From contig CP178758.1 of NCBI GenBank assembly GCA_047651235.1, positions 2,040,001 to 2,072,000 of the forward strand: a DNA stretch of 32,000 nucleotides, written 5' to 3'. The translations under genes and the position numbers were made by a program. Positions 1,560 to 28,400 of this stretch are shown piece by piece. The first letter of the stretch is position 1; each line of letters starts with the position of its first letter. The notes beneath the pieces were generated by a model. The model ran no database searches and had not been told where the DNA came from. It was given only the letters and a program-made list of their open reading frames with translations. The DNA comes from Candidatus Electrothrix yaqonensis. GTDB lineage: Bacteria > Desulfobacterota > Desulfobulbia > Desulfobulbales > Desulfobulbaceae.

Positions 1560-1809
1560 ATTATGAGGGAATAAATGAGGGCAACAGGCGGGTGGCCGAT
1601 GCCCGGTACAATGCGTTATGGGTTGTGCAAGGTTTCCGGGGAGTGGGGCTTGATAGCGGCACATGGCTCGGTATGATGAGGGGGGAATGTGTAAGCAGGA
1701 AAGGTGATCTGACCCCGGTTTATGCTACGCTTGTATTCTGCTTGTTTTTTTGAATCCGATACGGTAATTTATTTAAGTTTATTAACCCAATTTATAAAAT
1801 TTATCCATT

Positions 1810-2223
1810 TTGAACACCATGTCACTAGAAAAACAGATAAGATTAGGAAGTGCTGTCCTGATAATAGACGACAATCGTATTCTGCTGGGCAAACGTAATA
1901 AGGAACCAGAGTTTGGCAAGTGGGTTTTACCGGGAGGGAAGATTGAATTCGGTGAAACCCACGAACAAGCTGCTATACGGGAAGCCAAAGAAGAATTGGG
2001 TGTTGATATTGAACCTCAAGGTCTGGCAGGGAAAGGTATATACTACATAATGGGGCAAAATAAACAACGTATAATTGTTTACAATCTCGCAAGGCTTACT
2101 GGAGGAGAGCTGCATCCGTCTTCCGATATTAGCGAGGCTAATTTTTTTTCAAAAAACGAATTATTACAAATTGATATTACGGATATTGTCAAAGAGGTTT
2201 TGTTGGATACTGGCTGGATTTGA
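1810..2223 (+). CDS. Nudix hydrolase
   Basis: Complete Nudix box GGKIEFGETHEQAAIREAKEELGV (Gx5Ex7REUxEExGU). The ORF-track start is a TTG, and the likely ATG start is at 1819 (MSLEKQ...). Confidence 0.85.
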   Translation: MNTMSLEKQIRLGSAVLIIDDNRILLGKRNKEPEFGKWVLPGGKIEFGETHEQAAIREAKEELGVDIEPQGLAGKGIYYIMGQNKQRIIVYNLARLTGGELHPSSDISEANFFSKNELLQIDITDIVKEVLLDTGWI

Positions 2224-3062
2224 ATGTCATGGACTTGTCTCATAAAAAGTCTATTTTTTGGTTAATTGTTGCCGCACTGACAGGATTTGCGCTCGCATTT
2301 TATTTTTGGTCCTGTCAGGTCAATGCAGAACCTATTAATTTCCCTTCGTTTATTTTTGTTGGCCTTTCGGGCGTGATTTGCTCTTTGCTTGCTTCTTACT
2401 TGGCATTATCTATTTTATCTCCAGACCATCAGTGCGCGAGGAAAGAATTCAATGAAATCTTAGCCACTGGCATTAACCAATATCTTGCCGATCAGGAGTC
2501 TATGCGAAGTAAAGATTGGGCAACGTTTATATCTGACACTCATAGAGACAGTGAAATTTATATAATTGGAACTGCTAATTCTGAATGGTTAAGAAATGAT
2601 AGATGCAAGAAGGCAATTATTGATGTCGTTACGAAAAAGAATATAACGATTTATGTTTATTTTTTGGATCCGGAGTCGTCATGGGCTGAGGCGAGAGAAG
2701 AAAATGATAAGGATAATAAGTTTGGCAAAACAAAAGAACGAATTAAAAATTCCATTGAAAAATTCAAGGAACTTGCGAGTGAGAATAATAGCAAAGGAAA
2801 AGGAAACATTATATTGCGACAATATGATGCTATGCCGAGTACAGGTATCATAACAAATGGAAGCAGAATTTTTATAAAACATTACCTGACATCAACTTCA
2901 AATAACAGAACGCCTATCGCTGCTTTCAATGTTCCAACAATGAGAAAGAGGTGGAGATTGTCTATTGATTCTATCGAAGGTTGCGATGAATATGTAGAAA
3001 AGTATTTTTTAGACCTGTACGATCTTGTTACTAAGTTCAGAGATAACCTGCCAGTAAGTTGA
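2220..3062 (+). CDS. Membrane protein with 2 N-terminal TM helices and a ~190-aa soluble domain of unknown function
   Basis: Hydrophobic segments SIFWLIVAALTGFALAFYFW and FIFVGLSGVICSLLASYLALSIL. Its start overlaps or abuts the Nudix stop (TTGA at 2220-2223, with an in-frame ATG at 2229). The soluble part shows an alternating strand/helix pattern (EIYIIGT..., ITIYVYFLDPES, NIILRQYD..., RIFIKHYL). No catalytic motif was recognised. Confidence 0.7.
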   Translation: MNVMDLSHKKSIFWLIVAALTGFALAFYFWSCQVNAEPINFPSFIFVGLSGVICSLLASYLALSILSPDHQCARKEFNEILATGINQYLADQESMRSKDWATFISDTHRDSEIYIIGTANSEWLRNDRCKKAIIDVVTKKNITIYVYFLDPESSWAEAREENDKDNKFGKTKERIKNSIEKFKELASENNSKGKGNIILRQYDAMPSTGIITNGSRIFIKHYLTSTSNNRTPIAAFNVPTMRKRWRLSIDSIEGCDEYVEKYFLDLYDLVTKFRDNLPVS

Positions 3063-3083
3063 TAGCTTCAAAGAGAGAAAAGA

Positions 3084-3761
3084 ATGAATAGTAAATGTGG
3101 AGTCTGCGCAGACATAAAAGATATATATAGTGATAACTTGTCACCACTTTCGCTTTCTTGGAGGATCATTAAAGAAACAAAGAATTTTATTGTCACACCA
3201 TCACTTGGGTCAATAGTGGACGGGTATATAGTAATTTGGCCAAAAAAGCATATTTTGAGCATGAAGAACTTGGTTGATGAAGAATTGTACGACTTGATAA
3301 GAATAGTAGAATATTTCAACAACATAATGAAAGAAAAATATGGAAAACAAATAGTTGTTTTTGAACACGGCCAGATTGAAGGATGTAGCGAGGTAGGATG
3401 TGGTGTTAATCATGCCCATATTCATATGGTAGCATTAGATGATGCGAAATTATTTCTGAATAAATCGGAATCTATCTACTTTACTATGAAAGAATATCCA
3501 TCTTACAAAGATTTTTATCAAGACAATTATTGTCCCGAAACAGACTATATGCTAATTTCATCAACTAGTTTTGAGAGTACGAAAGTTTTATCTTATGGTA
3601 ACTCCAGGGTTTCACAAGCGTTACGGAAGATATTGGCGGAATGTTGTGGGCAGAGTCAAAATTGGAACTGGCGAGAGGAGATGGCGATCCCAAAAGCTCT
3701 TAATACTATGAATATATTAAGAGGCGAAGAGTGCCTGGAGAAATCACTTGATTTGGCTTGA
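3084..3761 (+). CDS. HIT (histidine triad) family nucleotide hydrolase/transferase with a C-terminal extension
   Basis: N-terminal CGVC, then GYIVIWPKKH, then the histidine triad NHAHIHMV (HxHxHxx). The protein is 225 aa, about 100 aa longer than minimal HIT proteins. Confidence 0.8.
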   Translation: MNSKCGVCADIKDIYSDNLSPLSLSWRIIKETKNFIVTPSLGSIVDGYIVIWPKKHILSMKNLVDEELYDLIRIVEYFNNIMKEKYGKQIVVFEHGQIEGCSEVGCGVNHAHIHMVALDDAKLFLNKSESIYFTMKEYPSYKDFYQDNYCPETDYMLISSTSFESTKVLSYGNSRVSQALRKILAECCGQSQNWNWREEMAIPKALNTMNILRGEECLEKSLDLA

Positions 3762-4649
3762 AAATTTTCTTTCTGGCCAAGTTATATCCCAGAATATTAA
3801 TCGATGTATAGAATGAATATATCCGCAAGAGACTACAAAAGGATAGTCAACCTTAGTTAATTTTGATAAGTCAGATACTGTCTGCTTCAGGTATGAGAAG
3901 AGAAGCCGTATTTTCTTGTCTGAAATAGCAGTGTATTGATTTTCATTTCTTGTCAATAAATCAAACCCATGCTCTAATAAGTATTTTTTTGTTTGATATA
4001 TCCTAGTTGTATCATCCTGTTTCGAAAATACAATTTTGTTGTTCTTTTCTATATTAGATGCTATTTTTAAATATCTCCATTCAACACTCTTTCTGTATAT
4101 ATTTGTATTGTTAGCGTTTATCTTCCGCTTAATGATCCTGCCACTTCCAATATCCATACTAATAACTTCATGTGGGGATTGATCCCCTCTTTGCAGGTCA
4201 CTTGCATCAAAACCAGGGCCAACAATTTCAAATAATATATCATCCCGATTAAACAAACAGTTTATGCTGTAGATGTTATGCAGACAATTAGCTGGTTCAA
4301 GCCAAAATACAATTCTATTTTGCTCTATATACCTTTTTGTTTCTTGTTCAATATTTTCATGTTCAACGAGATATCCACCACGCGGATAAGGAGGCTTTTC
4401 TGGATTTTTATCATGTCTTAGCAGAAGACGGGTGAATCCATATCGTTTGGTGAAATACTCCACTTTTTCCAGAGAATATTCGGACCATTTTGTAATGATA
4501 ATACCGTTTAAAGTTGGAAAGTTTATTTTTCTCAAGAATAAGATGCTCAAAAACTTATTAAAACCGATCAAATCAGCTATTGCTTCATCAAGATCATCTT
4601 GATTGCCGTCAATCATATATGCATCTTTTAACATCATAGGATTATTCAA
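3744..4649 (-). CDS. Hypothetical 301-aa protein with a weak ATP-grasp / PEP-utilising N-terminal-like resemblance
   Basis: Long AT-rich ORF, convergent with the HIT gene and overlapping it by 18 nt. The only resemblance I can offer from memory is the segment LLLRHD...IVFWLEPAN...FEIVGPGFDASDLQRGDQSPHEV, which recalls PPDK_N-type ATP-grasp proteins. The confidence applies to the ORF being a real CDS. The functional call is weak, about 0.25. Confidence 0.6.
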   Translation of the reverse strand: MNNPMMLKDAYMIDGNQDDLDEAIADLIGFNKFLSILFLRKINFPTLNGIIITKWSEYSLEKVEYFTKRYGFTRLLLRHDKNPEKPPYPRGGYLVEHENIEQETKRYIEQNRIVFWLEPANCLHNIYSINCLFNRDDILFEIVGPGFDASDLQRGDQSPHEVISMDIGSGRIIKRKINANNTNIYRKSVEWRYLKIASNIEKNNKIVFSKQDDTTRIYQTKKYLLEHGFDLLTRNENQYTAISDKKIRLLFSYLKQTVSDLSKLTKVDYPFVVSCGYIHSIHRLIFWDITWPERKFSSQIK

Positions 4650-4748
4650 GGTGTATTTTCATTTTTTATATTTTTACTTGAAAGGATACAGTGTAACTAA
4701 ACAATTTTAGCTTTTACTACAGGTTACCATAATTCTTATCTGATCCTC

Positions 4749-4835
4749 CTACACCCAGTAATACAACACCGGCACGACAGAAACAGTCAAGATGGCGATG
4801 ACCATGCCCACCGAAAATGACGAAGAGGATCTTCA
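4749..4835 (-). repeat. RND pump 3'-end copy 4 (most diverged)
   Basis: The minus-strand frame reads ...SFSVGMVIAILTVSVVPVLYYWV* (TAG at 4749-4751). The intact C-terminus is ...PSFGGMIIAMLTVFVVPVLYCWVEEGRIR*. Confidence 0.7.
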
Positions 4836-5041
4836 GGTTCGCTTTCTCCGCTCCTTTATTTCAGTTACAATATCATCCAGACTCATCTTATCAAACTTTT
4901 TTTTCTCTCTTCCGTGTAGTCACCGAATCCGGTCGTGAACTGATTCAGAAAACGTATTGTGTCCGCCGTTCCGAGCCTGCTGCTTAACAGAGCAATAGCT
5001 TTGATATTTATATCGTTCAACGTTGTCGCCGTAGCACTCAT
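4833..5041 (-). pseudogene. Small antitoxin-like ORF interrupted at an A8 homopolymer
   Basis: The ATG at 5041 overlaps the stop of the upstream PIN remnant (ATGA). It reads MSATATTLNDINIKAIALLSSRLGTADTIRFLNQFTTGFGDYTEERKK, then stops at 4883. With 9 A instead of 8 at ~4894-4901, the frame would continue KKFDKMSLDDIVTEIKERRKRT* to 4833. Confidence 0.45.
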
Positions 5042-5228
5042 TTTTCCATCTCCTGTAACAGTTCAAGGATTGAAACAGTCCTGACTCCGAGATCGTCTAT
5101 CCTCTTCGCTTTTTTCAGAAAGTTGTCATCGCAGGTGCAGAAGAAATCAGCTTTCAGCATTTCCGCCGAGGCAAGATGCAGGGCATCAATCGGTCGCTGA
5201 ATGCAGCAGCAAGATATATTTTCATCAT
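5038..5228 (-). pseudogene. Decayed PIN-domain toxin gene
   Basis: The N-terminal piece MMKIYL... is frameshifted relative to the copy at ~11180 (MMKIYLDNCCI). The C-terminal frame PIDALHLASAEMLKADFFCTCDDNFLKKAKRIDDLGVRTVSILELLQEMEK* is PIN-like. The middle of the gene is missing. Confidence 0.5.
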
Positions 5229-5279
5229 GATCTCAGTATACAGTAATCACTCCATGCAGGTAAAGAGGCAAATCTGGAC

Positions 5280-5355
5280 TCATCCCGTTTTTTTCTCCTC
5301 CACCCAACAATACAACACAGGCACCACAAACACAGTCAGCATCGCAATAAGCATC
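5280..5355 (-). repeat. RND pump 3'-end copy 3
   Basis: ...MLIAMLTVFVVPVLYCWVEEKKTG* (TGA at 5280-5282). It has 3 mismatches in ~58 nt to 15850-15910. The flank 5199-5279 is shared with 11147-11232. Confidence 0.8.
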
Positions 5356-5364
5356 TTCTGAAAA

Positions 5365-5655
5365 ATGTATGAAAACTATGTTTTTACCGTGCCGGAGCAG
5401 AATGCGGATCTTCTTACATCCAACCATTTCTACCGGACCCAGGCCAAGACGGAAATTGATTTTATCACGGTCAGAGAACAGCAGTGTCGGCTGATTGAAG
5501 TGAAGGCGGGAATCTTTGACCGACCGGTCAAGGCGATGAGTGCTTTTGAGAAGAAATATCAGGGGCAATTTGCCGAAATCAGCAAGACTGTTGTCAACAG
5601 GTCGTGTCTTGCCCGGAAGAAAGGGTTTCGTTTTCTTCCGGCATGGTTATTGTGA
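5365..5655 (+). pseudogene. 3' fragment of an AAA+ ATPase gene (DUF4143-type C-terminus)
   Basis: YENYVFTV...HFYRTQAKTEIDFITV...RLIEVKAG matches the C-terminal fENfv...ywRt..g.EvDfv...iEvK signature of DUF4143 ATPases. The ATPase domain is absent, and the fragment begins right at the 5355 junction. Confidence 0.55.
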
Positions 5656-5816
5656 AAATGAACACAGCGGCATTCTTCTGAGGCTGATAGAAAAATACGC
5701 TGACCTGCCTATGGACTTGGCGAACACATGGGGTTCGCCCCTACTTCATTGTATTGATGAGTTTGTCGATATCCACAGATGGGTCGACAACAGGATGTAA
5801 TTGTTCTCTCAGGCCC

Positions 5817-5972
5817 TTAAACTCTTGCAGGGCAACCAAAACCTTCTTGCCCCTTGCTGGATCCGACTGTTTTAGAGCCTTTTTTTGTATGTTTGTCAAC
5901 GAGATATTCATAGAAGCCGAACAGCTCTCTTTTTGCGGCCTCGGGTAATATTTCCATGTTTAATTCTTTCAT
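5817..5972 (-). CDS. Small DUF2281-like (antitoxin-like) protein
   Basis: AGGAG lies 6 nt upstream of the ATG at 5972. The product reads MKELNMEILPEAAKRELFGFYEYLVDKHTKK.... The LPE..K.E...F.EFL pattern resembles DUF2281 proteins. Confidence 0.45.
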   Translation of the reverse strand: MKELNMEILPEAAKRELFGFYEYLVDKHTKKGSKTVGSSKGQEGFGCPARV

Positions 5973-6023
5973 AATCATCTCCTGACCCTGCATTTCAACG
6001 TTCTGGAAATATTTAGTATGTTC

Positions 6024-6052
6024 AGTATATTCAAATTCTCCCGGAAGCACAA
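6024..6052 (-). promoter_or_regulatory. Sigma70-like promoter (TTGTGC-17 nt-TATACT) reading toward the DUF2281-like gene
   Basis: The minus strand reads ttgtgc ttccgggagaatttgaa tatact. It is part of a 33-nt module repeated in inverted orientation at 9345-9377. Confidence 0.4.
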
Positions 6053-6298
6053 CCGTTGTGGTGGAACAGGGGATGCGGGTGGTTGCGGGGCGGCAGACGG
6101 TGGGATGGGGGAACGAGTTGCGATTATTTCTTTTTTTTGGGGGATTTGGTATTTGTCGGGGATAATTGAAGAGGATGGAGGGGGACAGCCCTTCGGGGGA
6201 AGGGCCGGGTTTATTGCATTCTTGGGCTTTATGTTCACGGTACCGGTGGGCATTGGAGGAGGTGATAAACGAGTTTGCTTAATTGGGCTCTGACCCCT

Positions 6299-6391
6299 AA
6301 TTACTCGTTCGGAAAGTTCTGAGCGCTGAATTTCCCGGCGGACAGCCGGGGTTGTACGCGCTCTTTTGTGCAGACCGGTGACATAGGAAAC
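6299..6391 (-). mobile_element. N-terminal fragment of an IS481-like transposase
   Basis: The frame reads VSYVTGLHKRARTTPAVRREIQRSELSERVI, like the HKNARTTP..R..I HTH N-terminus of IS481-family transposases. It breaks off at the GGGGTCAGAG motif (6280-6304). Confidence 0.4.
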
Positions 6392-6577
6392 CGGCAGGCC
6401 GAAGCCTCCCGCACAGCCCACCCAAAGGAAAAAGCACGCCATGCACTGGACATAAAAATACCGCCGGTTAATAAGTAAAAAAGGCGGTTGTCCGCCTATG
6501 TCTTTCGGGTTTCCAAGCCCGGCCCACGGATTTTGCCGTGGACGAAAATAAGGTACAGGGAAGGGGTGGGGGTGTCA

Positions 6578-6606
6578 ATAAAAAAGCCCCGGTGGTGGCC
6601 GGGGCT
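6578..6606 (-). terminator. Rho-independent terminator downstream of the 74-aa peptide gene
   Basis: The minus strand reads AGCCCCGG-CCACCA-CCGGGGCT followed by TTTTTATT. Confidence 0.7.
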
Positions 6607-6665
6607 GTGCAGGTTCTGTTATTGTTGGGATTCGTTTCTCATCCCAACTTACCGTGCCTTCAATA

Positions 6666-6890
6666 TTAGCGATTCAGGACTGGGTTCCTAAGAACTTCGG
6701 CCGGATTTTCCATTCCGCCGCAACCATCGCCGAAACACGATCCAGCACCAGCAATTTTCACCGCAATCGCTTCTATCATTTCCTCCTTAATTCCTTTTTG
6801 TTGCAAACCCTCTACGAGAGCACCGAGCATCTCTGCTTGATCTTTGCCAATTTCCTTAGCCGTAACTTCTCTCATTACCAATCTAGGCAT
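6666..6890 (-). CDS. 74-aa Cys-containing small protein, candidate RiPP precursor
   Basis: Strong SD (AGGAGG, 8 nt before the ATG at 6890). It has a helical, charged N-terminal two thirds ending ...AVKIAGAG, followed by SCFGDGCGGMENPAEVLRNPVLNR. It lies immediately downstream of the rSAM/SPASM gene on the same strand and is followed by a terminator. Confidence 0.6.
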   Translation of the reverse strand: MPRLVMREVTAKEIGKDQAEMLGALVEGLQQKGIKEEMIEAIAVKIAGAGSCFGDGCGGMENPAEVLRNPVLNR

Positions 6891-6918
6891 ATCAATTACC
6901 TCCTTTAAATTTATATTT

Positions 6919-6942
6919 AGTAAGTACCTTATTATACTTACT
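6919..6942. other. Perfect 8-bp-stem hairpin between the rSAM gene and the peptide gene
   Basis: agtaagta-ccttatta-tacttact. It sits at the AT-rich to GC-normal composition switch. Confidence 0.5.
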
Positions 6943-6948
6943 TTCTGC

Positions 6949-8271
6949 CTAGTAAATACTATCTACACTTATATCCACATCACGTTGCACACTCTCTAAT
7001 AAATTGTGCTTCGCAAAACATCGATGTGTATTTTTTTTATCTTTTTTTGTTTCCAAATAAAGTAAACATCCACCCATACAAAGAGGTAATTCCTTGCAAC
7101 TAATACATTCATTATCTTTAAATGGACTCCAATTATCCCAACTTGCCTGTGATCCAGTTTTATTTACAATAATTTCACCATGATCTGATAGCTCTCCATA
7201 TCTTTCATCCTTAACACCAAGATATTTTGTACAGCGATGAATATGTCCAAATGGATCAATCATAAAAGAATTTTTTTGATACCCCATACAAAACGAAGTA
7301 CAGGGTAATGCATAACCACGAGCTACTGTAAATCCTAAAGAATCTGACAACCGTCCTAAATCTTTCTCTAAATTCCAATAATCATCTGGTAATGTTGTTA
7401 ATGGTTCCATTTTATATATATCGTCAGGGGGTAATGCTTCACGAAAATTTAAAACTATATTATTTCTCAATGGATATAAATACTTTTCAAGTAACGTAGG
7501 GATACTATGCCGATTATGTTCATCAATATTAATTCTCACTATAACCCTTTCAAACAACTCACAATTTTTTTCTATATTATTTAAAATACGACTAAAACTA
7601 GGAAAACCACCTGTCCTAAATCGTCTTTCATCATGAATTTCTGGAGGGCCATCAATTGTTATTTGTATTTCATCTACATGATAACGTCTTAACATTTCAG
7701 CAGTACCACGCGATAATAAATATCCGTTTGTAGCTATACGAGCACTATATTTAACATTCTCAATATCACATTGTGTGATAAAAAAATTACTAAATTTTTC
7801 AATAAGTCGTGTTTGAAGAAGTGGCTCTCCTCCAAACCATGCTACACGAAACCGCTTTTTCCCAATAATATTCCGTGAAACGAACTTGTTGATTGAACTA
7901 CATAACTCATTAGAGATATGAACATCAATGTGTTTTTCATAACAATAAACACATCGAAAATTACATGCCAAAGTTAAAGCAATCCCTAATCCAAAAGCAT
8001 CACTACCAAGTCTAGCTGTCTGATGTATCTGCTCAACCCAACCTTTTTCATCAAACTCGTTCTCTACAATAAATCCATTTTTCTTAAGCAATTGTATTGA
8101 AGAATCACCTACATCAAATACAAATTGCTCTCCACCTTTTATTAATAAGTCACCCAATTGCTGTAACGGAGGTTTACTAATATTAAGTACACTTGTAGTA
8201 CGAGTATTAATTAAAAACTGCTCTCCAGAGGAAGAAGTCTTTACTGTATTAAATATAGAATTTTTTACCAT
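6949..8271 (-). CDS. Radical SAM enzyme with a C-terminal SPASM domain (peptide-maturase type)
   Basis: CNFRCVYCYE (CxxxCxxC) at about residue 103, GGEPLL, and C-terminal Cys clusters (CTSFC..., HRCTKY, ECISCKELPLCMGGC) typical of SPASM. The ~90-aa N-terminal extension resembles peptide-recognition regions of sactisynthase-like enzymes. The gene is very AT-rich. Confidence 0.85.
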   Translation of the reverse strand: MVKNSIFNTVKTSSSGEQFLINTRTTSVLNISKPPLQQLGDLLIKGGEQFVFDVGDSSIQLLKKNGFIVENEFDEKGWVEQIHQTARLGSDAFGLGIALTLACNFRCVYCYEKHIDVHISNELCSSINKFVSRNIIGKKRFRVAWFGGEPLLQTRLIEKFSNFFITQCDIENVKYSARIATNGYLLSRGTAEMLRRYHVDEIQITIDGPPEIHDERRFRTGGFPSFSRILNNIEKNCELFERVIVRINIDEHNRHSIPTLLEKYLYPLRNNIVLNFREALPPDDIYKMEPLTTLPDDYWNLEKDLGRLSDSLGFTVARGYALPCTSFCMGYQKNSFMIDPFGHIHRCTKYLGVKDERYGELSDHGEIIVNKTGSQASWDNWSPFKDNECISCKELPLCMGGCLLYLETKKDKKNTHRCFAKHNLLESVQRDVDISVDSIY

Positions 8272-8365
8272 TTGATATTGTTTATTTTTAGTTAGACGGT
8301 ATCGCTTTTAGACAAATTCAACTAGTCAATTTTGTATATAATTTAAAAAAACAAAAAAAACCTAA

Positions 8366-9040
8366 TCAATTTATCCCCCGAACCACAATCCCCTCCCCAA
8401 GCAGCTGCCCCCAAACCGTATCCCCGGCCCGGGCCGCATACCACTTCCCGTTATCCATAAAATAACAAGGTTGCTCGGTCACCCCCCACCCCTTCAGCTT
8501 CACAGCCTCCCAACGCTCCTCAGTGGGCTGCAACCGGGCCCGGATAAAACGCCCATGCCCCGGCAGATGAATAATCCTGTCCGACCCCTCCGCCTGCAGG
8601 GCCAACCCGCTTTCTCCCTCGGTCCCGATGATCAGCCAGCGGCCTTTCTCAATCTTTCCGTTATTCCAACGTAATGTACCTTCAACAAAGCATTTCTGCA
8701 AACCCTTTAACTTATATTCCTCCAACATAATCTGAGGAGAACCGGTCAGATAGCCCAGCATGGCGGATAATCCGCCCATAGAGCCCACCTGACTGCCAGC
8801 CCAGGCCAGGGCACCGAAAATCAATAAAACGCTGAACTCGGCCCCGCTCCCGGTCTTCAGCCGCCATGATCGCTTGAAAAAGACAAAGAGCTTATTGGTC
8901 CAGGGCGACATGGCCCGCACCCCGCTGACCGTGGCGCAGTCAGCCACCACATGGAGCAGGGCACCGACCCCGATAAAAAAGTCGTAAATTAGGGACAAAC
9001 CACGTTTTCCACTAACAACGTAAGAGTCAAAAAAACACAA
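8366..9040 (-). CDS. YdjM/DUF457-like membrane-bound metal-dependent hydrolase, N-terminally truncated, with an unknown ~110-aa C-terminal domain
   Basis: LLHVVADCATVSGVRAMSPW matches the second His/Asp motif of the YdjM family (SH...D..T..G...L.P). There is no ATG start: the ORF opens with TTG, and a stop lies 14 codons upstream. A possible promoter TTGACA-17-ATATTG lies at ~9085-9113 on the minus strand. Confidence 0.45.
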   Translation of the reverse strand: MCFFDSYVVSGKRGLSLIYDFFIGVGALLHVVADCATVSGVRAMSPWTNKLFVFFKRSWRLKTGSGAEFSVLLIFGALAWAGSQVGSMGGLSAMLGYLTGSPQIMLEEYKLKGLQKCFVEGTLRWNNGKIEKGRWLIIGTEGESGLALQAEGSDRIIHLPGHGRFIRARLQPTEERWEAVKLKGWGVTEQPCYFMDNGKWYAARAGDTVWGQLLGEGIVVRGIN

Positions 9041-9348
9041 ACACGAAAAACCAATTAACGAGCCCCGTATTCCGTGCTGCTATGATCCGAACAATATGAC
9101 AATTATGATTTTTTTGTCAAGAATAACTTTCTGATAGACTGCTGTCTTAAAAGGCCAAATCCCCTTGCGCCTCAAGGAAATTTATCAGATCAGCTCGCTC
9201 AAACACCTTGCAGAAAAAAATTACATCTCCCTTTTCATCTCGTCAGCACCCCAACCTCCCGTGCCACAGCCCCGAGCTTCTCGTTCAGGATAAAACCACA
9301 AACTACACCTCCTCGCTCCCCGACACATTCCCTGCCCAAAAGCACCGG

Positions 9349-9456: not shown

Positions 9457-10380
9457 ATGGCCAGCAAAGAACGCTATATCAACCTGTTCACTGATTACGG
9501 ATTTAAGAAGATCTTCGGTGAAGAACCGAATAAGAACCTGCTCCTGGATTTTCTCAACGAGCTGCTGAAAGAGGAACAGGGAGAGATCCGGGATTTGACC
9601 TATCTGAAGACCGAACAGCTCGGTGACACCGATATCGACCGCAAGGCGATCTTCGATCTCTACTGCGAGAATGAACGAGGTGAGAAGTTCATTGTCGAAC
9701 TCCAGAAGAGCAAACAGAATTTTTTCAAGGACCGAGCACTCTACTACTCCACCTTTCCCATCCGCGAACAGGCTGAACGAGGGGACTGGAATTTTAAACT
9801 TAAGGCCGTGTATACGGTGGCTATCCTGGACTTTGTCTTTGACGAGGATAAGAACCAACCGGAAAAGTACCGCTATGATGTTAAGCTGTCTGATATCGAA
9901 ACTAACCGGGTGTTTTATGATAAACTGACCTTCATCTATCTGGAAATGCCCAAATTCAGCAAGAACCTGGATGAGCTGAAGACTCGTTTCGATAAATGGC
10001 TGTACGTTATCAGGAATCTGAACCGGCTGGAACGAATACCGGACATGCTACGGGAACAGGTGTTTGAGCAGCTCTTTGATACTGCGGAGATTGCACGCTT
10101 TACCCCGGACCAAGTGCGTTCTTATGAGAAGAGTCTGAAATATTATCGGGACATGAAAAACTCCCTTGATACAGCCTTTGATGAGGGGAGAGTAGAAGGA
10201 AAAGAAGAAGGGAGAGTAGAAGGAAAAGAAGAAGGGAGAGTAGAAGGTAAGAATGAAAGAGATAGAGAAATAGTCCTCAACGGACTTCAGCAAGGATTTG
10301 ATATCAAAATGATTGCTCAGTTGACGGGCCTGTCAGAAGAAGAGATTAAGGAGATTGGACAAGAGCGCTCGGACGACTAA
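9457..10380 (+). CDS. Rpn-family recombination-promoting nuclease / PD-(D/E)XK putative transposase
   Basis: The N-terminus YINLFTDYGFKKIFGEEPNKNLLLDFLNELL and the ...DLYCENERGEKFIVELQ core are characteristic of this family (TIGR01784-type). The C-terminus carries EGRVEGKE repeats. Confidence 0.85.
   Translation: MASKERYINLFTDYGFKKIFGEEPNKNLLLDFLNELLKEEQGEIRDLTYLKTEQLGDTDIDRKAIFDLYCENERGEKFIVELQKSKQNFFKDRALYYSTFPIREQAERGDWNFKLKAVYTVAILDFVFDEDKNQPEKYRYDVKLSDIETNRVFYDKLTFIYLEMPKFSKNLDELKTRFDKWLYVIRNLNRLERIPDMLREQVFEQLFDTAEIARFTPDQVRSYEKSLKYYRDMKNSLDTAFDEGRVEGKEEGRVEGKEEGRVEGKNERDREIVLNGLQQGFDIKMIAQLTGLSEEEIKEIGQERSDD
10186..10257 (+). repeat. 24-bp tandem repeat x3 inside the Rpn-family gene
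   Basis: gggagagtagaaggaaaagaagaa occurs twice perfectly, plus a third unit with 3 mismatches. It encodes (G)RVEGKEE repeats in frame. Confidence 0.9.
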
Positions 10381-11109: not shown

Positions 11110-11390
11110 TTCTCCTTGATTATATCGTTCAACGTTGTCGCCATAGGAATGCAGCAGTTATCAAGATATATTTTCATCATGATCTCAGTATACAGTAATC
11201 ACTCCATACAGGCAAAGAAACAAATCCACGATCATCCGACCCTCCCCTCCTCAACCCAACAATACAACACCGGCACCACAAACACCGTCAGTAGAGCAAT
11301 AATCATCCCACCAAAAGAAGGAATAGCCATAGGCACCATAATATCCGAACCCCGACCGGTGGAAGTCAGGATCGGGACGAGGATGGCAAT
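11110..11390 (-). repeat. RND pump 3'-end copy 2 plus shared downstream flank (PIN start and antitoxin start remnants)
   Basis: 11233-11390 reads IAILVPILTSTGRGSDIMVPMAIPSFGGMIIALLTVFVVPVLYCWVEEGRVG* (TGA at 11233-11235). It is ~90% identical over ~145 nt to 15834-15980. 11147-11232 matches 5199-5279, and 11121-11142 matches 5019-5040. Confidence 0.85.
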
Positions 11391-12165: not shown

Positions 12166-12510
12166 ATGAAACCGGTTCCGCAATGGGAGAACAGTTCTCC
12201 GCACGCCCGGCATTTCCTGCATCAGGTGCGGGAGGAAGTGCATCGTCTGCTGCCTGATGCGAAAGTAATTCTGCACGGTCCCCGTGTCCGCAAGGAAGCC
12301 CGGCAGGATTCTGACTGGGATTTTTTGATCATTGCTGATTATCCGTTGGACAGAGAGATTATAACAAAGCTGAAGGATGGGCTGTATGATATTGAACTGG
12401 AAAATGATGAGGTGGTGAGCAGTATTATACAGAGCAGGCAGGAGTGGTCTTCGCCTGCATACGATGCCTTGCCGTTCAAAAAGGCGGTGGAGAGAGGGAT
12501 AGAATTGTGA
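12166..12510 (+). CDS. Small nucleotidyltransferase (MNT-like), no adjacent HEPN partner
   Basis: SD GAGGAG precedes the ATG. It reads ...VILHGPRVRKEARQDSDWDFLII (a variant of GSRARG...SDxD). It is the intact paralog of the remnant at 100-362. Confidence 0.7.
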   Translation: MKPVPQWENSSPHARHFLHQVREEVHRLLPDAKVILHGPRVRKEARQDSDWDFLIIADYPLDREIITKLKDGLYDIELENDEVVSSIIQSRQEWSSPAYDALPFKKAVERGIEL

Positions 12511-15753: not shown

Positions 15754-15833
15754 ATGGCAGTGGATTTAATTCAAGTTGTGATAACATCATTCACTCATTA
15801 TATAGCAATAGGCAAAGAAACAAAAATCCAAAA

Positions 15834-18800
15834 TCATCTGATTCTCCCCTCCTCAACCCAACAATACAACACAGGCACCACAAACACTGTCAGCATCGCA
15901 ATAATCATCCCGCCAAAAGAAGGAATAGCCATAGGCACCATAATATCCGAGCCCCGCCCAGTGGAGGTCAGGATCGGAATCAGGGCCAGGATGGTGGTGG
16001 CCGAGGTCATCAGGGCCGGGCGGATGCGGCGTTGGGCACCGTGCAGGACCATGTCGCGGATGTCCTGCCGGGTTCTCTCCTTCTTATCCTTGAGGCGGGC
16101 CTTGGATTCATCCAGATAGGTGGCCATGAGCACCCCATCATCAGTGGCAATGCCAAAGAGGGCCAGGAAGCCCACCCAGATAGCTACAGAGAGGTTGATG
16201 CTCTGGACCTGAAAGAGCCTGCGCATATCAGTATCAAAGAGAGAGAAATCCAGGAACCAATCCTGACCATAGAGCCAGATCATCAGAAAGCCGCCGGACC
16301 AGGCCACCAGAATGGCGGAAAAGACCATCATGGTGGTGCCCAGGGAACGGAATTGAAGGTAGAGAATCACCATGATTACCAGCAGGGCCAGGGGCAGGAT
16401 CACCGACAGCCGTTTCTGGGCCCGGACCTGGTTCTCGTAATTACCGGCAAAGGTGTAGGAGACACCGGGCGGAATCCGCAGCTCACCGCTATCAATCTTC
16501 TCCTGAAGAAATTGGCGGGTCTGCTCCACCACATCCACTTCAGCAAAGCCCTTCTTTTTATCAAAGAGCACATAACCGGTCAGGAAGGTGTCCTCGCTCT
16601 TGATCATCTGCGGGCCGCGCACATAGCGGATATCGGCCAGCTGGTTCAGGGGGATATGCTCGCCCGTGGAGGCGGTGACCAGGATTCGCTCCAAGGCCTC
16701 CAGGGAGTCCCGCCGTTCCCGCTGATACCGCACCCGGACCGGATAGCGTTCCCGGCCTTCCACGGTCATGGTGGTCATTTTGCCGCCCACTGCCGCTGCA
16801 ATCACCTCCTGGACCTTGCCCAGCCGGATGCCGTGGCGGGAGATGGCCTCCCGGTCAATGACGATCTCCAGATAGGGCTTGCCCACCACCCGGTCGGCCA
16901 GCACGGTCAGGGGAGAAACTGAGGGAACCTGTTTGACCAGTCGTTCCAGGTCCAGGCCCACCTGCTCGATGGTCGCCAGATCAGGCCCTTTGACCTTGAT
17001 GCCCATAGGGGCGCGCATGCCGCTCTGGAGCATGACGATGCGGGCCGCAATGGGCTGGAGTTTGGGTGCCGAGGTCACACCGGGGATCTCGGCGGCCTGA
17101 ACGATCTCGTTCCAGATGTCATCAGTGTCTTCAATGCCGGGCCAGGGCTCGCGGTCCGGGTTGATGGTCGGATCAAGGGCGGTCCGCCAGAGGCGGAAGG
17201 GTCTGCCTTCAGCACCAGAGGCATCAGAAGCGGCAGGAATGAGCCGTCCCCTCTCATCCCGCTCAAAACGTCCCTGCACCAGATAGGGCATGCCGTCCCC
17301 GGCCTTGAGCAGCACGCCTGCCGGGCTGCGGCAGAAATCCTTCCGGTCCGCCCGCCAGGAAAAAAGCAGGCGATTTCCCTGTTCATCCTTCAGGTATTCG
17401 GGATGGTAATTGATAATGGTTTCAATCATGGACAGGGGCGCAGGGTCCAGCGGGGTCTCGGCCCGGCCCAGCTTGCCCACCGCCGATTCCACCTCCGGGA
17501 TGGCGGTGATCGCCCGGTCCTGAGCCGCCAAGACTTCCTGAACCTCGGTCAGCCCGGCATGGGGCATGGTGGTGGGCATGTAGAGAAAAGAACCTTCATC
17601 CAGGAAGGGCATGAACTCCCGACCCAGACCGGGAAAGCTGTGCGCCAGACTCATCATCGGCTTGGCCCGACGGATACTGTCCGGCAGCCAGCCGGTGAGC
17701 TTCGGTACACCCAGCCAGACCATGGCCCCGCCGATGACCACCAGCAAGGGGAAAATCAGAAAAATCAGCTTCCAGCGGAGAAACAGGCGCAACAGGTGCG
17801 GATAGAGCCACTGAAAAACCTGGAAAGATCCCAGCAGGCCGCCGATAAGCAGGGCGACAAAGAAGAAGTTCGCCCATGCCCCTTGCTCGATTCCCAGAGG
17901 CTGCCAGCTGCGGGCCAGCAGGACCGTGACCAGCAGAATCATGATCCAGTTTTCTATCCGGCTGAGGATAGGCAGTACCTTCGGGGGCAGGAACTGGAGG
18001 ATCAGGCGGTAAACTCCCAGGCCGAGCAGGATCAGGGCCAGGAGATGGACCTTCCAGGCCAGCACAGCCCCGGCAATGATCAGCAGGCCAGGCAGGACAA
18101 AACGGATCTTCCAGGAGGCCTTACCTGCTTTTTTGCGGCGAAAAAGACTATGGGCCAGGGGCGGCAGCACGGTCAGGGCGATGACCACCGAGGCGATCAG
18201 GGCAAAGGTCTTGGTGTAGGCCAGGGGCCTGAAGAGCTTGCCTTCGGCGGCCTGCATGGTGAAGACCGGCAGGAAGCTGACAATGGTGGTGGCCACGGCA
18301 GTGAGTACGGCACTGCCCACCTCCACCGAGGCATCGTAGATGATCCGCAGGGTGGATTCCTCGGGATTGGCCTTGTCCAGCCGGGTGAGAATATTCTCGC
18401 AGATAATGATGCCCATGTCCACGATGGTGCCGATGGCAATGGCGATGCCGGACAGGGCCACCACGTTGGCATCCACGCCAAAGACCTTCATGCCGATAAA
18501 GGCCATGAGCACGGTCAGGGGCAGGAGGGCCGAGATGAGCAGGGACGAGCGCAGGTGCATGACCGTGACCAGGATGACGATGATGGTGATCAGGATTTCC
18601 TCGCTCAGGGCGATCTTCAGAGTGTCCAGGGTTTCATGGATCAGGCCGGAACGGTCGTAGAAGGGCACAATGGTGACCTTGCTTATGGTGCCGTCGGCCA
18701 GGGTTTTGCTGGGCAGGCCCGGTGATATCTCCCGGATCTTCTCCTTGATCCGTTCAATGGCGGCCAGCGGATTATCGCCGTAGCGCACCACTGCCACGCC

Positions 18801-19745
18801 GCCCACCACCTCGCTGCCTGCCTTATCCAGCACTCCCCGCCGCAGGGCCGGGCCCAGACTCACCGTTGCCACGTCCGCTATGCGGATGGGGATATTATCC
18901 ACCGCTTTGATCACGGACTGCTCCAGATCCTTGAGGCTCTTGACAAAGCCGATGCCCCGGATCACGTACTCCACCCGGTTGATCTCAATGGTGCGCGCGC
19001 CCACATCGATATTGGACTGGCGCACCGCCGCAAAGACCTCCTCCAGGCTCACGCCCCGGTCATGGAGGGCGTCCGGGTCCACGTCGATCTGGTATTCCTT
19101 GACAAAACCGCCGATGGAGGCTACTTCTGAGATCCCGGAGGCCCCCATCAGGGCGTAGCGCACATACCAGTCCTGGATGGAGCGCAGCTCGGCCAGATCC
19201 CAGCCGCCTGCGGGTTTGCCGTCCGGGGTACGGCCCTCCAGGGTGTACCAGAAGATCTGGCCCAGACCGGTGGCATCCGGGCCCAAGGTGGGGCGAACCC
19301 CGTCTGGCAGGGTACCGGGCGGCAGGCTGGAGAGCTTTTCCAGAAGCCGGGACCGGGACCAGTAGAACTCCACCGAGTCGTCAAAGATGACATAGATGGA
19401 GGAAAAGCCGAACATGGAATAGCTGCGCACGGTCTTGACGCCCGGCAGACCGAGCAGGGACACGGTCAGGGGATAGGTGACCTGATCCTCCATGTCCTGG
19501 GGCGAACGGCCCGCCCATTTGGTGAACACGATCTGTTGGTTCTCGCCGATGTCCGGGATGGCATCCACCGGCACCGGGTCGCGAGGCAGACCGCCCAGAT
19601 TGAAATTAAAGGGGGCGACCATCAGGCCCCAGCCAGTCAGGGCCAGGAGCAGGAGGCTGACGACCATCTTGTTGAGCAGGCAGAAGCGGATGATGCCGCT
19701 GACAAAGGAGGTGGCAGGGGGGAGGTGTTGGTCTGGCGTGTTCAT
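15834..19745 (-). CDS. CusA/CzcA-family heavy-metal-type RND efflux permease, long form (1303 aa)
   Basis: Family-typical N-terminus (IIRFCLLNK..., AIPDIGENQQIVFTKWAGRSPQDMEDQVTYPL) and the 12-TM RND layout throughout. It carries an extra ~100-aa hydrophobic insert after TM6 and a ~90-aa insert in the second periplasmic loop. Confidence 0.9.
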   Translation of the reverse strand: MNTPDQHLPPATSFVSGIIRFCLLNKMVVSLLLLALTGWGLMVAPFNFNLGGLPRDPVPVDAIPDIGENQQIVFTKWAGRSPQDMEDQVTYPLTVSLLGLPGVKTVRSYSMFGFSSIYVIFDDSVEFYWSRSRLLEKLSSLPPGTLPDGVRPTLGPDATGLGQIFWYTLEGRTPDGKPAGGWDLAELRSIQDWYVRYALMGASGISEVASIGGFVKEYQIDVDPDALHDRGVSLEEVFAAVRQSNIDVGARTIEINRVEYVIRGIGFVKSLKDLEQSVIKAVDNIPIRIADVATVSLGPALRRGVLDKAGSEVVGGVAVVRYGDNPLAAIERIKEKIREISPGLPSKTLADGTISKVTIVPFYDRSGLIHETLDTLKIALSEEILITIIVILVTVMHLRSSLLISALLPLTVLMAFIGMKVFGVDANVVALSGIAIAIGTIVDMGIIICENILTRLDKANPEESTLRIIYDASVEVGSAVLTAVATTIVSFLPVFTMQAAEGKLFRPLAYTKTFALIASVVIALTVLPPLAHSLFRRKKAGKASWKIRFVLPGLLIIAGAVLAWKVHLLALILLGLGVYRLILQFLPPKVLPILSRIENWIMILLVTVLLARSWQPLGIEQGAWANFFFVALLIGGLLGSFQVFQWLYPHLLRLFLRWKLIFLIFPLLVVIGGAMVWLGVPKLTGWLPDSIRRAKPMMSLAHSFPGLGREFMPFLDEGSFLYMPTTMPHAGLTEVQEVLAAQDRAITAIPEVESAVGKLGRAETPLDPAPLSMIETIINYHPEYLKDEQGNRLLFSWRADRKDFCRSPAGVLLKAGDGMPYLVQGRFERDERGRLIPAASDASGAEGRPFRLWRTALDPTINPDREPWPGIEDTDDIWNEIVQAAEIPGVTSAPKLQPIAARIVMLQSGMRAPMGIKVKGPDLATIEQVGLDLERLVKQVPSVSPLTVLADRVVGKPYLEIVIDREAISRHGIRLGKVQEVIAAAVGGKMTTMTVEGRERYPVRVRYQRERRDSLEALERILVTASTGEHIPLNQLADIRYVRGPQMIKSEDTFLTGYVLFDKKKGFAEVDVVEQTRQFLQEKIDSGELRIPPGVSYTFAGNYENQVRAQKRLSVILPLALLVIMVILYLQFRSLGTTMMVFSAILVAWSGGFLMIWLYGQDWFLDFSLFDTDMRRLFQVQSINLSVAIWVGFLALFGIATDDGVLMATYLDESKARLKDKKERTRQDIRDMVLHGAQRRIRPALMTSATTILALIPILTSTGRGSDIMVPMAIPSFGGMIIAMLTVFVVPVLYCWVEEGRIR

Positions 19746-27951: not shown

Positions 27952-28400
27952 TATTCTTTTTCTTATGTTAAGATGGCATAAAGATTGGTGTCGAGAACAA
28001 TCGGATGATACAGTATAATTACACACTGCTCTGCAGAACATAAAGCTGCAGGAGTATCCTTAAATGAACTGTACCATAAGTATAAATTATTTTACAAGGA
28101 AAAACATATTGTTGACAATTGTTCCTGTTTTGATTTACAAATATACTGTTATAATAAATATCGGCAGCGACCCGACTCTCTCTGTTTTGTACCCCGTAAC
28201 GGAAACTTTATGAAATTTTTCTTTTCCCGGAAAACTCCGGAAAAATATGTATTGGTCCAGCCCGGCCCCGACTGTCGGGCGTACATGCTGCGCATACCTT
28301 GTAATCTGGTTATCTGCGTATGACCTGTTTAATCCGAACTGACGACATGCCGGAAAAACGTTACATCCCAACCGCAATTTTCTGACCGGACCTTCAATCT

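Follow-up and report, generated by a model that had tools for sequence, protein, structure and literature searches.

We report that the AT-rich block at positions 1740..4748 of a 32,000-nucleotide (nt) stretch of the genome of the cable bacterium Candidatus Electrothrix yaqonensis (contig CP178758.1, positions 2,040,001 to 2,072,000; hereafter the window) is, by comparative sequence analysis, one copy of a conserved, self-contained and horizontally mobile operon, the fourth gene of which is inverted in this clade. Four intact open reading frames (ORFs) occupy the block, encoding a Nudix hydrolase, a membrane protein with two transmembrane (TM) helices (the 2TM protein), a HIT-family enzyme and a protein that we call P301, a putative dikinase-type ATP-grasp protein. 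The first three, all on the + strand, form the co-directional trio that an initial annotation of the window had described from the sequence alone, and the P301 gene converges on them. In the searchable literature we found no description of a Nudix-membrane-HIT-ATP-grasp gene set, and because no hallmark of a named system and no curated P301 model was found either, the cassette falls outside known kinds of system. Admittedly, every cassette component belongs to a known enzyme superfamily. We propose that the operon is an accessory module in genetic conflict, acting in defence against phages or mobile elements or in competition between such elements, which we regard as a serious possibility rather than a probability.

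To examine conservation, we scanned GTDB with one genome per species, which yielded 25 P301 loci, and metagenomes, which yielded 167 relatives, of which 80 loci were kept; the four families were then assigned within loci by local phmmer and hidden Markov model (HMM) searches. Loci with enough flanking DNA were considered informative (n=64), and the counts include near-identical metagenome contigs. All four genes were found in 54 of the 64, in the order Nudix, 2TM, HIT, P301 in nearly all instances. Most of the complete loci (44 out of 54) are co-directional throughout, six are scored as having a single ORF for 2TM and HIT (among them L028, which has other frameshifts as well and is probably an assembly artefact), and four have one part inverted (the window, L003, L048, and L070). 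P301 occurred without any of the other three genes in 5 informative loci. The hosts belong to at least seven phyla, namely Acidobacteriota (many), Verrucomicrobiota, Actinomycetota (Solirubrobacterales), Proteobacteria (Alphaproteobacteria), Planctomycetota, Desulfobulbia, and Bathyarchaeia, and also include Candidatus Aquilonibacter; the archaeal hosts are represented by two proteins labelled Bathyarchaeota and by L037, which has archaeal housekeeping neighbours. Overlaps of 1-4 nt between adjacent cassette genes are frequent in the related loci, and pairwise divergence is correlated among the four families (17 complete loci, r = 0.74-0.87, Mantel p <= 0.0005). The GC content of the cassette, or of the part present, is below that of the flanks in 29 out of 29 loci (mean -6.2 points, window -14.7). 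Viewed in the window alone, the placement of the fourth gene on the opposite strand would suit a chance juxtaposition of four unrelated genes in a patch of foreign DNA. This explanation is refuted by the comparative data, because the genes co-occur in 54 out of 64 loci from distant phyla, nearly always in the same order, with translational coupling, fusions, and correlated divergence, and we assign it virtually no probability. The initial annotation had made its proposal depend on the four families lying together in other genomes, and because they do so in distant taxa, the proposal survives on this point.

Clustering of all flanking ORFs revealed no fifth conserved gene, and the flanks differ between loci. 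The candidates for a fifth gene were rejected, as the clusters consisted of antisense shadow ORFs, HsdR (three loci), and an upstream gene of ~125 aa (three archaeal loci). The latter is a divergent gene of 122-128 aa without a Pfam match that lies just upstream of the Nudix gene in archaeal cassettes (L006:5192-5575, L008:3872-4258, and L037:7305-7673, all on the minus strand) and may be a regulator. The closest relative of the window cassette is L003 (66-87% protein identity), where a group II intron reverse transcriptase (RVT_1 and GIIM; L003:3951-4814) adjoins the Nudix gene.

The first gene (1819..2223, + strand) encodes a Nudix pyrophosphohydrolase of 134 aa. For this and the other genes we used the start codons of the public gene calls on identical contigs (ATG 1819, ATG 2229, and ATG 4637); an alternative TTG start lies at 1810. 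The perfect Nudix box noted at the outset is borne out by the sequence, in which GX5EX7REUXEEXGU is complete (G-KIEFG-E-THEQAAI-RE-A-K-EE-L-G-V), and by a score for Pfam NUDIX that places the protein firmly in the superfamily (7.5e-19, 68.5 bits vs a cut-off of 21.1). The solved proteins nearest to it are nucleoside triphosphate (NTP) pyrophosphohydrolases of the MutT/MTH1/NUDT1 type, and this type is indicated for the cassette enzyme by sequence similarity. It did not pass the test for a MutT / 8-oxo-dGTPase equivalog (TIGR00586, 51.1 bits vs a cut-off of 97.9) and scored below every NCBIfam equivalog cut-off, the other models being far below theirs.

The second gene (2229..3062, + strand; alternative TTG start 2220) encodes a membrane protein of 277 aa with two N-terminal TM helices and a soluble domain. 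The hydrophobic helices, which had been recognized initially, lie at residues 8-26 and 42-60 and are present in 16 out of 19 homologues. The reported overlap of the start of this gene with the Nudix stop holds only from the TTG at 2220, and with the annotated ATG there is a 5-nt gap instead. Positively charged residues (an N-terminal KK and an RK after helix 2) suggest, following the positive-inside rule, that the soluble domain is cytoplasmic. A single-sequence search, limited by its word prefilter, returned the protein itself and one relative of 87% identity, and local HMMs recover the family in nearly every cassette. Pfam gave no significant match for the window protein; within the family, 11 out of 19 members match DUF5919 (PF19319; best 8.5e-7). 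The Foldseek comparison that the initial annotation had proposed for this protein (280 aa in its count) gave mostly PLD-fold top matches (FAM83-like BJ-TSA-9, PLD3, NucT, MITD1, and F13), which are non-significant and come from a poor, low-confidence model. The family alignment contains no conserved HxK of the HKD motif, and the domain is therefore not an active HKD enzyme; tentatively, we interpret the domain as PLD-like, with a binding and not a catalytic function. For the membrane protein, a role as anchor or sensor is as conceivable as one as effector, and the resemblance to the enzyme plus membrane-effector logic is an analogy.

The third gene (3084..3761, + strand) encodes a HIT-family enzyme of 225 aa with an N-terminal CxxC, an FEHG motif, a GCGVNHAHIHMV triad, and a CwfJ_C_2-like C-terminal extension. 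Its score is above the Pfam cut-offs for HIT (25.1 bits vs 21.5) and DcpS_C (26.7 bits vs 24), and it contains the motifs CGVC and NHAHIHMV. Among 21 aligned homologues, the N-terminal CxxC, FEHG, and GGCGxxHAHLHxVP are near-invariant, and the C-terminal conserved region reads SYL...PSQYxRxxLA...WDWR. The protein has the hydrolase-branch motif H-phi-H-phi-H-phi-phi, with H112 and H114 invariant and H110 conserved in at least 90% of these homologues. The transferase branch of GalT and Ap4A phosphorylase is characterized by the motif HxHxQ, and our test for a GalT-type transferase was negative, with an invariant His at the third motif position and GalT chains matched only at E = 0.015-0.075. We considered that the HIT protein could be a GalT-type transferase making an NDP-X messenger, which is ruled out by the HxHxH motif. 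The best solved relative of the HIT family profile is the C-terminal CwfJ region of human CWF19L1 (8ro2_L1, 2.5e-13, query positions 46-211), and this alignment covers both the HIT-like core and the C-terminal extension (CWF19L1 residues 354-523 of 538). Moreover, Pfam CwfJ_C_1 is above its cut-off in the HIT relative of L023 (23.8 bits vs 21); the window HIT protein alone matched no CwfJ model in Pfam. The initial description of the protein (CxxC ... NHAHIHMV with a C-terminal extension) thus stands, given the Pfam HIT and CWF19L1 profile matches, and on this sequence evidence the extension is homologous to that of eukaryotic CWF19L1. Its eukaryotic counterpart is the CwfJ_C_1 and CwfJ_C_2 module of CWF19L1/Drn1 and CWF19L2, and the alignment with CWF19L1 includes the SYL...PSQ..R..LA...WDWR extension. 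Unlike the prokaryotic proteins, which keep the full HxHxH triad and the N-terminal CxxC, the aligned segment of CWF19L1 matches only one His of HxHxH and has the preceding GGCG loop deleted. The prokaryotic HIT proteins, unlike CWF19L1, are either stand-alone or fused to a membrane protein, in hosts that have no spliceosome. The protein also matches a PHROG without an assigned function over its full length (phrog_23000, 1.1e-15).

The relationship to CWF19L1 raises the alternative that the cassette is an RNA or DNA end-healing or decapping module that acts alongside Rtc-type RNA repair, in which HIT would remove 5'-App/3'-ppG adducts like aprataxin, Nudix would remove 5' pyrophosphates or caps, and P301 would phosphorylate ends. 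Apart from the CwfJ module of CWF19L1 being the closest solved relative of the HIT family (its yeast homologue Drn1 works with the lariat-debranching enzyme), this alternative can draw on a gene for the RNA ligase RtcB directly upstream of and co-directional with the HIT gene in a variant locus where P301 carries a MazG-like domain (L045:4382-5830, minus strand), on an RtcR-like CARF-AAA-HTH sigma-54 activator 560 nt downstream of another cassette (L030:5506-7170, PADLOC 1.3e-114), and on the location of the window copy among RNA-targeting toxin genes (HEPN/MNT). The L030 cassette may be under sigma-54/RtcR control, as the Nudix ORF at L030:1826 is preceded, at a distance of 47 nt, by a -24/-12-like element (TGGCTC-N5-TGTGC). 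However, this sigma-54 match has two mismatches, similar chance matches occur in three other loci, and the link to Rtc is seen in only two of more than 100 loci. The Pfam-scanned ORFs beside the window cassette include no RtcB, RtcA, or RtcR. In addition, anchoring of HIT in the membrane through fusion to the 2TM protein is hard to reconcile with RNA repair, and to our knowledge no ATP-grasp polynucleotide kinase has been described. We therefore consider an end-healing role very unlikely.

The fourth gene (3744..4637, minus strand) encodes P301, a divergent, putatively dikinase-type ATP-grasp protein of 297 aa, or of 301 aa from an alternative TTG start at 4649. As initially described, it is convergent with the HIT gene and overlaps its 3' end by 18 nt (3744-3761). 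It had also been called an orphan, which it is not: a word-indexed protein search returned 56 relatives, and out of 1.84 billion cluster representatives an exhaustive profile search found 470, including 385 with E <= 1e-10. By sequence, the P301 family is real but rare. The P301 sequence has no significant match in Pfam, NCBIfam, or PHROGs, its profile matched no PDB sequence even at E <= 10, PPDK_N of Pfam is likewise unmatched, and PADLOC gave a marginal, partial match to BnzB (E = 0.0013). An AlphaFold2 model based on 39 homologues reached a predicted local distance difference test score (pLDDT) of 93.8 and a predicted template modelling score (pTM) of 0.90, and in the Foldseek search of the PDB that had been suggested for the 301-aa protein, all top 50 matches listed are members of the ATP-grasp superfamily (best 4c5a, E = 1.2e-4, TM-score 0.42, which is distant), including D-Ala-D-Ala ligase, phosphoenolpyruvate (PEP) synthase, RimK, PurK, LysX, and MdnB/C. 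From this model, P301 is confidently predicted to have the ATP-grasp fold. The family has the conserved motifs LLLRHDKxPExPPYPRGGY and EVVGPGFDASDLQRGDxxPHE and 17 invariant positions, including R74, G87, G88, E137, D144, R150, H156, and K191. Four family members contain a PEP-utilizers swivel domain fused C-terminally (PF00391, 3e-19 to 2e-26), one of which (L044) has the canonical GGKLSHAAVVAR phospho-histidine motif and is encoded immediately behind co-oriented 2TM and HIT genes. In other members, a MazG/PRA-PH-like NTP-pyrophosphatase domain that scores at or slightly under the Pfam cut-offs is found at the N-terminus. On the strength of the swivel domain fused to its relatives, P301 is grouped with the dikinase ATP-grasp modules (PPDK, PEP synthase, and rifampin phosphotransferase (RPH)), as a putative assignment for the window copy, which has neither a swivel domain nor a PPDK_N match.

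Dikinases offer the closest biochemical comparison. RPH, a single chain, converts ATP and its substrate to AMP, Pi, and the phospho-substrate via a swivelling phospho-His (PMC4844700), while in HpeHI a stand-alone ATP-grasp subunit (HpeI) works with a separate His-carrying subunit (PMC12167813). P301 has the ATP-grasp nucleotide-binding module in common with HpeHI, RPH, and PEP synthase/PPDK, some of its relatives also have their phospho-His swivel domain with the GGxxSHAA motif, PEP synthase is among its top structural matches, and as in HpeI the ATP-grasp part is a separate polypeptide. In contrast to the dikinases, P301 has no sequence match to PPDK_N or to PDB chains; the window P301 has no swivel domain, and the cassette encodes no substrate-binding domain; and dikinases occur in a catabolic or resistance context, whereas the partners of P301 are HIT, Nudix, and a membrane protein. 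This comparison suggests a second alternative, a small-molecule dikinase pathway that inactivates or catabolizes an environmental nucleoside- or nucleotide-type antibiotic or xenobiotic. Here P301 would act as a kinase on the compound, in the manner of RPH and HpeHI; cleavage of phosphoramidate or NMP adducts would fall to HIT and removal of the toxic nucleotide to Nudix, and the membrane protein would serve to sense or bind the compound. In agreement with such a pathway, the characterized small-molecule members of the dikinase-type group to which P301 is putatively assigned are resistance or catabolic kinases (PMC4844700; PMC12167813). Most loci, moreover, come from metagenome-assembled genomes of soil and peat (Acidobacteriota, Actinomycetota, and Verrucomicrobiota), where housekeeping genes surround the cassette. 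Resistance to peptide-nucleotide antibiotics is conferred by HIT hydrolases such as MccH. However, there is no equivalent of the RIF-binding or HpeH substrate-binding domain, and clustering of the flanking ORFs showed no conserved transporter or regulator beside the cassette. The replacement of the Nudix enzyme by MazG-like or Dcd-like enzymes, described below, points to canonical (d)NTP substrates instead, and the cassette is also found in anaerobic archaea and a cable bacterium. We consider this pathway unlikely, if worth keeping in view.

When comparing the loci, we observed that HIT and P301 form a recurrent core, as judged from gene content, and that the nucleotide enzyme and the membrane partner are exchangeable. 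In a clade centred on Verrucomicrobiota (L034, L058, L062, L064, and L071), 2TM and HIT form an in-frame fusion, whereas the 2TM gene is absent from L011, L054, and L055 and split by frameshifts in L029, L036, and L048; we count these frameshifts and absences as a hint of a conflict role. At the 2TM position between HIT and Nudix, L033 (Planctomycetota) encodes a 364-aa TCAD9/APH kinase-like protein (L033:9181-10275, minus strand, 1.1e-17). The definition of the TCAD9 domain goes back to NTPase-based conflict systems, and this replacement, too, counts as such a hint. The MazG-P301 loci L039 and L045 have a different multi-TM protein in place of 2TM. The Nudix position is elsewhere taken by MazG-like enzymes fused to P301 or by Dcd-like enzymes fused or adjacent to HIT. 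For example, on two Streptomyces plasmids a contiguous run of genes encodes Dcd-like, HIT, P301-like, and cysteine-desulfurase proteins, and genes for a MazG-like NTP pyrophosphatase and methyltransferases lie in the vicinity. These two loci (L046, Streptomyces sp. Mg1 pSMg1-2, 5770-9066; L047, Streptomyces sp. NBC_01278 plasmid, 4730-8030) are the only relatives that we found in cultured organisms. The L047 cluster is followed by a phage portal gene and by a DEAD-box helicase gene of 16 kb, an arrangement suggestive of a phage-plasmid. In L023 a fusion of Dcd-like and HIT is followed by a methyltransferase and then P301, and in L035 (5520-8388) a ThiF (E1-like) protein, a P301-like ATP-grasp protein, and a S-adenosylmethionine (SAM)-methyltransferase occur without HIT or Nudix, inside a mobile element with TraG, Phage_rep_O, and HNH genes. 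The exchange of Nudix for MazG-like and Dcd-like enzymes, together with the ATP-grasp nature of the fourth gene, supports the early view of the cassette as a nucleotide-centred module.

The same variants bring up a third alternative, in which the cassette modifies (d)NTPs, DNA, or RNA for the self-protection of a mobile element or as chemical defence: the NMP released by an NTP pyrophosphatase would be altered and then phosphorylated again by P301. Phage pathways for modified dNTPs use this logic of NTP pyrophosphatase, modifier, and kinase (e.g. T4 gp56/gp42/gp1), and the pairing of HIT and P301 with Dcd-like, MazG-like, SAM methyltransferase, ThiF, and cysteine-desulfurase genes, as well as the phage portal and 16-kb helicase genes beside L047, fit such a scheme. 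However, the canonical cassette encodes no recognizable base-modifying enzyme, the HIT triad is of the hydrolase and not of the transferase type, the membrane protein would have no obvious role, and we found no relatives of P301 or HIT in the viral contigs of IMG/VR. Modification of nucleotides or nucleic acids is in our judgement quite unlikely.

We return to the proposal that the operon acts in genetic conflict. In this scenario, P301 would spend ATP (yielding AMP and Pi) to phosphorylate a nucleotide-type substrate or a histidine of a partner protein; HIT and Nudix would cleave NMP-X and NDP-X or NTP linkages; and the membrane protein would tether and regulate HIT as a sensor or effector, with its DUF5919 domain as the physical partner of HIT. 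The net effect would be the conversion or draining of a nucleotide pool, or the making and destruction of a nucleotide-derived signal. The modular swapping of parts resembles that of conflict systems, the composition is foreign in every locus examined, and the genomic setting of several copies gives further hints. Cassettes are found beside genes of integrative and conjugative elements (integrase, excisionase-like helix-turn-helix, and DUF2274; L041-L043), near type I restriction-modification genes (L006, L008, and L034), and among HepT/MNT, HigBA, RelBE, and a Schlafen-like gene (L036), and the window cassette is located among HEPN/MNT, Rpn, and Uma2 genes in a hotspot of serial insertions.

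Several observations weigh against a role in conflict. Only about 6 out of 147 flanking ORFs in 22 genome loci match any PADLOC model at 1e-10, and these include at least one cysteine desulfurase and an RtcR-like regulator. By Pfam, most of the flanking genes in Acidobacteriota and the other genome loci have housekeeping functions (YceG, RuvX, CarD, URO-D, and aminotransferases, among others). Validated defence proteins are matched by none of the components, the INPHARED phages contain no match to the HIT protein, and the absence of P301 and HIT relatives from IMG/VR counts here as well. Regarding the components themselves, the window 2TM protein has no DUF5919 match, its structure model is poor (pLDDT 59), and its PLD-like assignment derives from weak Foldseek matches (all E >= 0.08), while the window P301 has no swivel domain. 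Correlated divergence could result partly from shared host phylogeny, and an operon with three enzymes is more suggestive of a pathway than of a single effector. We rejected strong defence-island enrichment, of which the flanks of the genome loci, judged from raw counts, give no sign; a minority of loci have known defence or mobile-element genes beside them. The initial interpretation thus holds for a co-localized, nucleotide-centred unit, its defence part being plausible, and the neighbourhood analysis that it had called for confirmed co-occurrence across taxa without strong enrichment in defence islands around the genome loci.

We searched the window proteins and 41 cassette proteins with PADLOC (E <= 0.001), and the only matches were PDC-S07 for Nudix and a weak ThsC for HIT. 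The scans found no CBASS, Pycsar, or Thoeris hallmark (CD-NTase, cyclase, or TIR) and no other system-specific model, in keeping with the initial remark that the combination is not any named system. Like CBASS, Pycsar, and Thoeris systems with 2TM effectors, the cassette is compact, is located in mobile or variable DNA and places nucleotide enzymes beside a small two-helix protein with a cytoplasmic, putative ligand-binding domain; unlike them, it has no CD-NTase, cyclase, or TIR, and its enzymes are two hydrolases and a kinase-type ATP-grasp protein. PDC-S07 is a single gene of ~390 nt under the PADLOC label "PDC" (PMC11514479). All 13 cassette Nudix proteins tested match this model (13/13, best 6.2e-17), the window protein at 4.6e-17 and 59.9 bits, which is under its score of 68.5 bits for the generic Pfam NUDIX. 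We take "PDC" from its name to mean an untested phage-defence candidate. The cassette as plain PDC-S07 was rejected, since the model describes a generic small Nudix protein. ThsC, a Thoeris-associated HIT protein (PMC8565338), is weakly matched by four cassette HIT proteins (best 6.3e-7), and the cassette contains no ThsA or ThsB. The cassette also shares with nucleotide-depletion defences (dCTP deaminase, dGTPase, and MazG-like) its interchangeable MutT-type Nudix, MazG-like, and Dcd-like enzymes, all of which act on (d)NTPs. The depletion defences that we know of are single enzymes, whereas the cassette adds an obligatory pair of HIT and ATP-grasp proteins and usually a membrane protein.

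In the window, the composition profiles that delimit the block (GC ~0.33-0.39 over 1740..4748) agree with the description of a region more AT-rich than both flanks: GC is 0.32-0.39 at ~1800-4800, 0.49-0.50 at 1201-1800, and 0.44-0.47 at 4801-5800, and that of the cassette is 0.355 vs 0.502 for the remaining window. On one side the block is bounded by a remnant of the 3' end of an RND transporter gene (4749..4832, minus strand), recognized from a repeat family and its translations. It comprises 27 codons with the C-terminal sequence ...GMVIAILTVSVVPVLYYWV* and a stop at 4749-4751 (minus strand), about 100 nt from the end of the block. The intact RND gene is located at 15834-19745 (minus strand), and the remnant is the most diverged of four copies of its 3' end, consistent with its earlier description as the oldest. 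The copies are found at 4721-4806, 5270-5355, 11222-11307, and 15824-15909, with 64-84% identity to the reference copy, and further repeat pairings link 5210-5285 with 11162-11237 and 11222-11382 with 15824-15984. The four copies argue for serial insertions downstream of the RND gene and point to its 3' end as an integration hotspot for foreign modules, at which each insertion would bring or displace a copy; we identified no integrase for this site. A Pfam scan confirmed the HEPN, MNT, Uma2, and Rpn (PDDEXK_2) genes listed by the initial annotation around the block, as well as a radical-SAM gene. A weak sigma-70-like promoter match (10/12, consensus scan) lies upstream of the Nudix gene (1650..1677, + strand), and in promoter and terminator scans of the region, matches were no more numerous than in shuffled sequence. 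Rfam and tRNA scans found no RNA element within or bounding the cassette.

Elsewhere in the window, a neighbouring inserted module contains a near-threshold match to an isrK/C4-type antisense RNA (6477-6551, minus strand; Rfam 48.6 bits vs a gathering score of 50, E = 2.3e-8); RNAs of this type are characteristic of the immunity regions of P1/P7-like prophages and of genomic islands. A second AT-rich patch (6949-8271, minus strand, GC ~0.30-0.34) encodes the radical-SAM protein of 440 aa (Pfam Radical_SAM and Fer4_12) and is probably a separate foreign cargo. We also observed a 205-nt direct repeat with 93% identity (158-362 and 12291-12495), the copies of which sit inside a 94-aa ORF without a Pfam match (150-434) and a 114-aa ORF (12166-12510), a 12-nt periodic GAAGAAGG-type repeat at the 3' end of the Rpn (PDDEXK_2) gene (10180-10257), and four 56-nt repeats with a spacing of 117-141 nt (27171-27604) inside an 871-aa ORF (25426-28041).

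Taken further, our proposal would assign the cassette to a new class of immune or conflict system in bacteria and archaea, nucleotide-based and coupled to the membrane. This class would be driven by a dikinase-type ATP-grasp protein and a catalytically intact CwfJ-type HIT enzyme, with an interchangeable NTP pyrophosphatase and membrane or kinase partner, and the cassette HIT family would be the active prokaryotic counterpart, and possibly the ancestor, of the CwfJ domain of spliceosome-associated CWF19/Drn1. We put this broader claim forward as a doubtful but attractive conjecture, and we know of no precedent for either type of enzyme as the core of a defence system. In any case, the cassette is a compact, self-contained module of four genes in ~3 kb, found repeatedly in bacteria and archaea. 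Should it prove to be a conflict system, it would introduce a new principle, in which phosphotransfer of the ATP-grasp/dikinase type is coupled to HIT chemistry at the membrane, and the defence repertoire would gain a new set of exchangeable nucleotide enzymes. Otherwise, P301 would still represent a new branch of the dikinase ATP-grasp family, and the operon would provide the first operon context for DUF5919 and prokaryotic relatives of the eukaryotic CwfJ/CWF19 module that are, by motif, catalytically intact.

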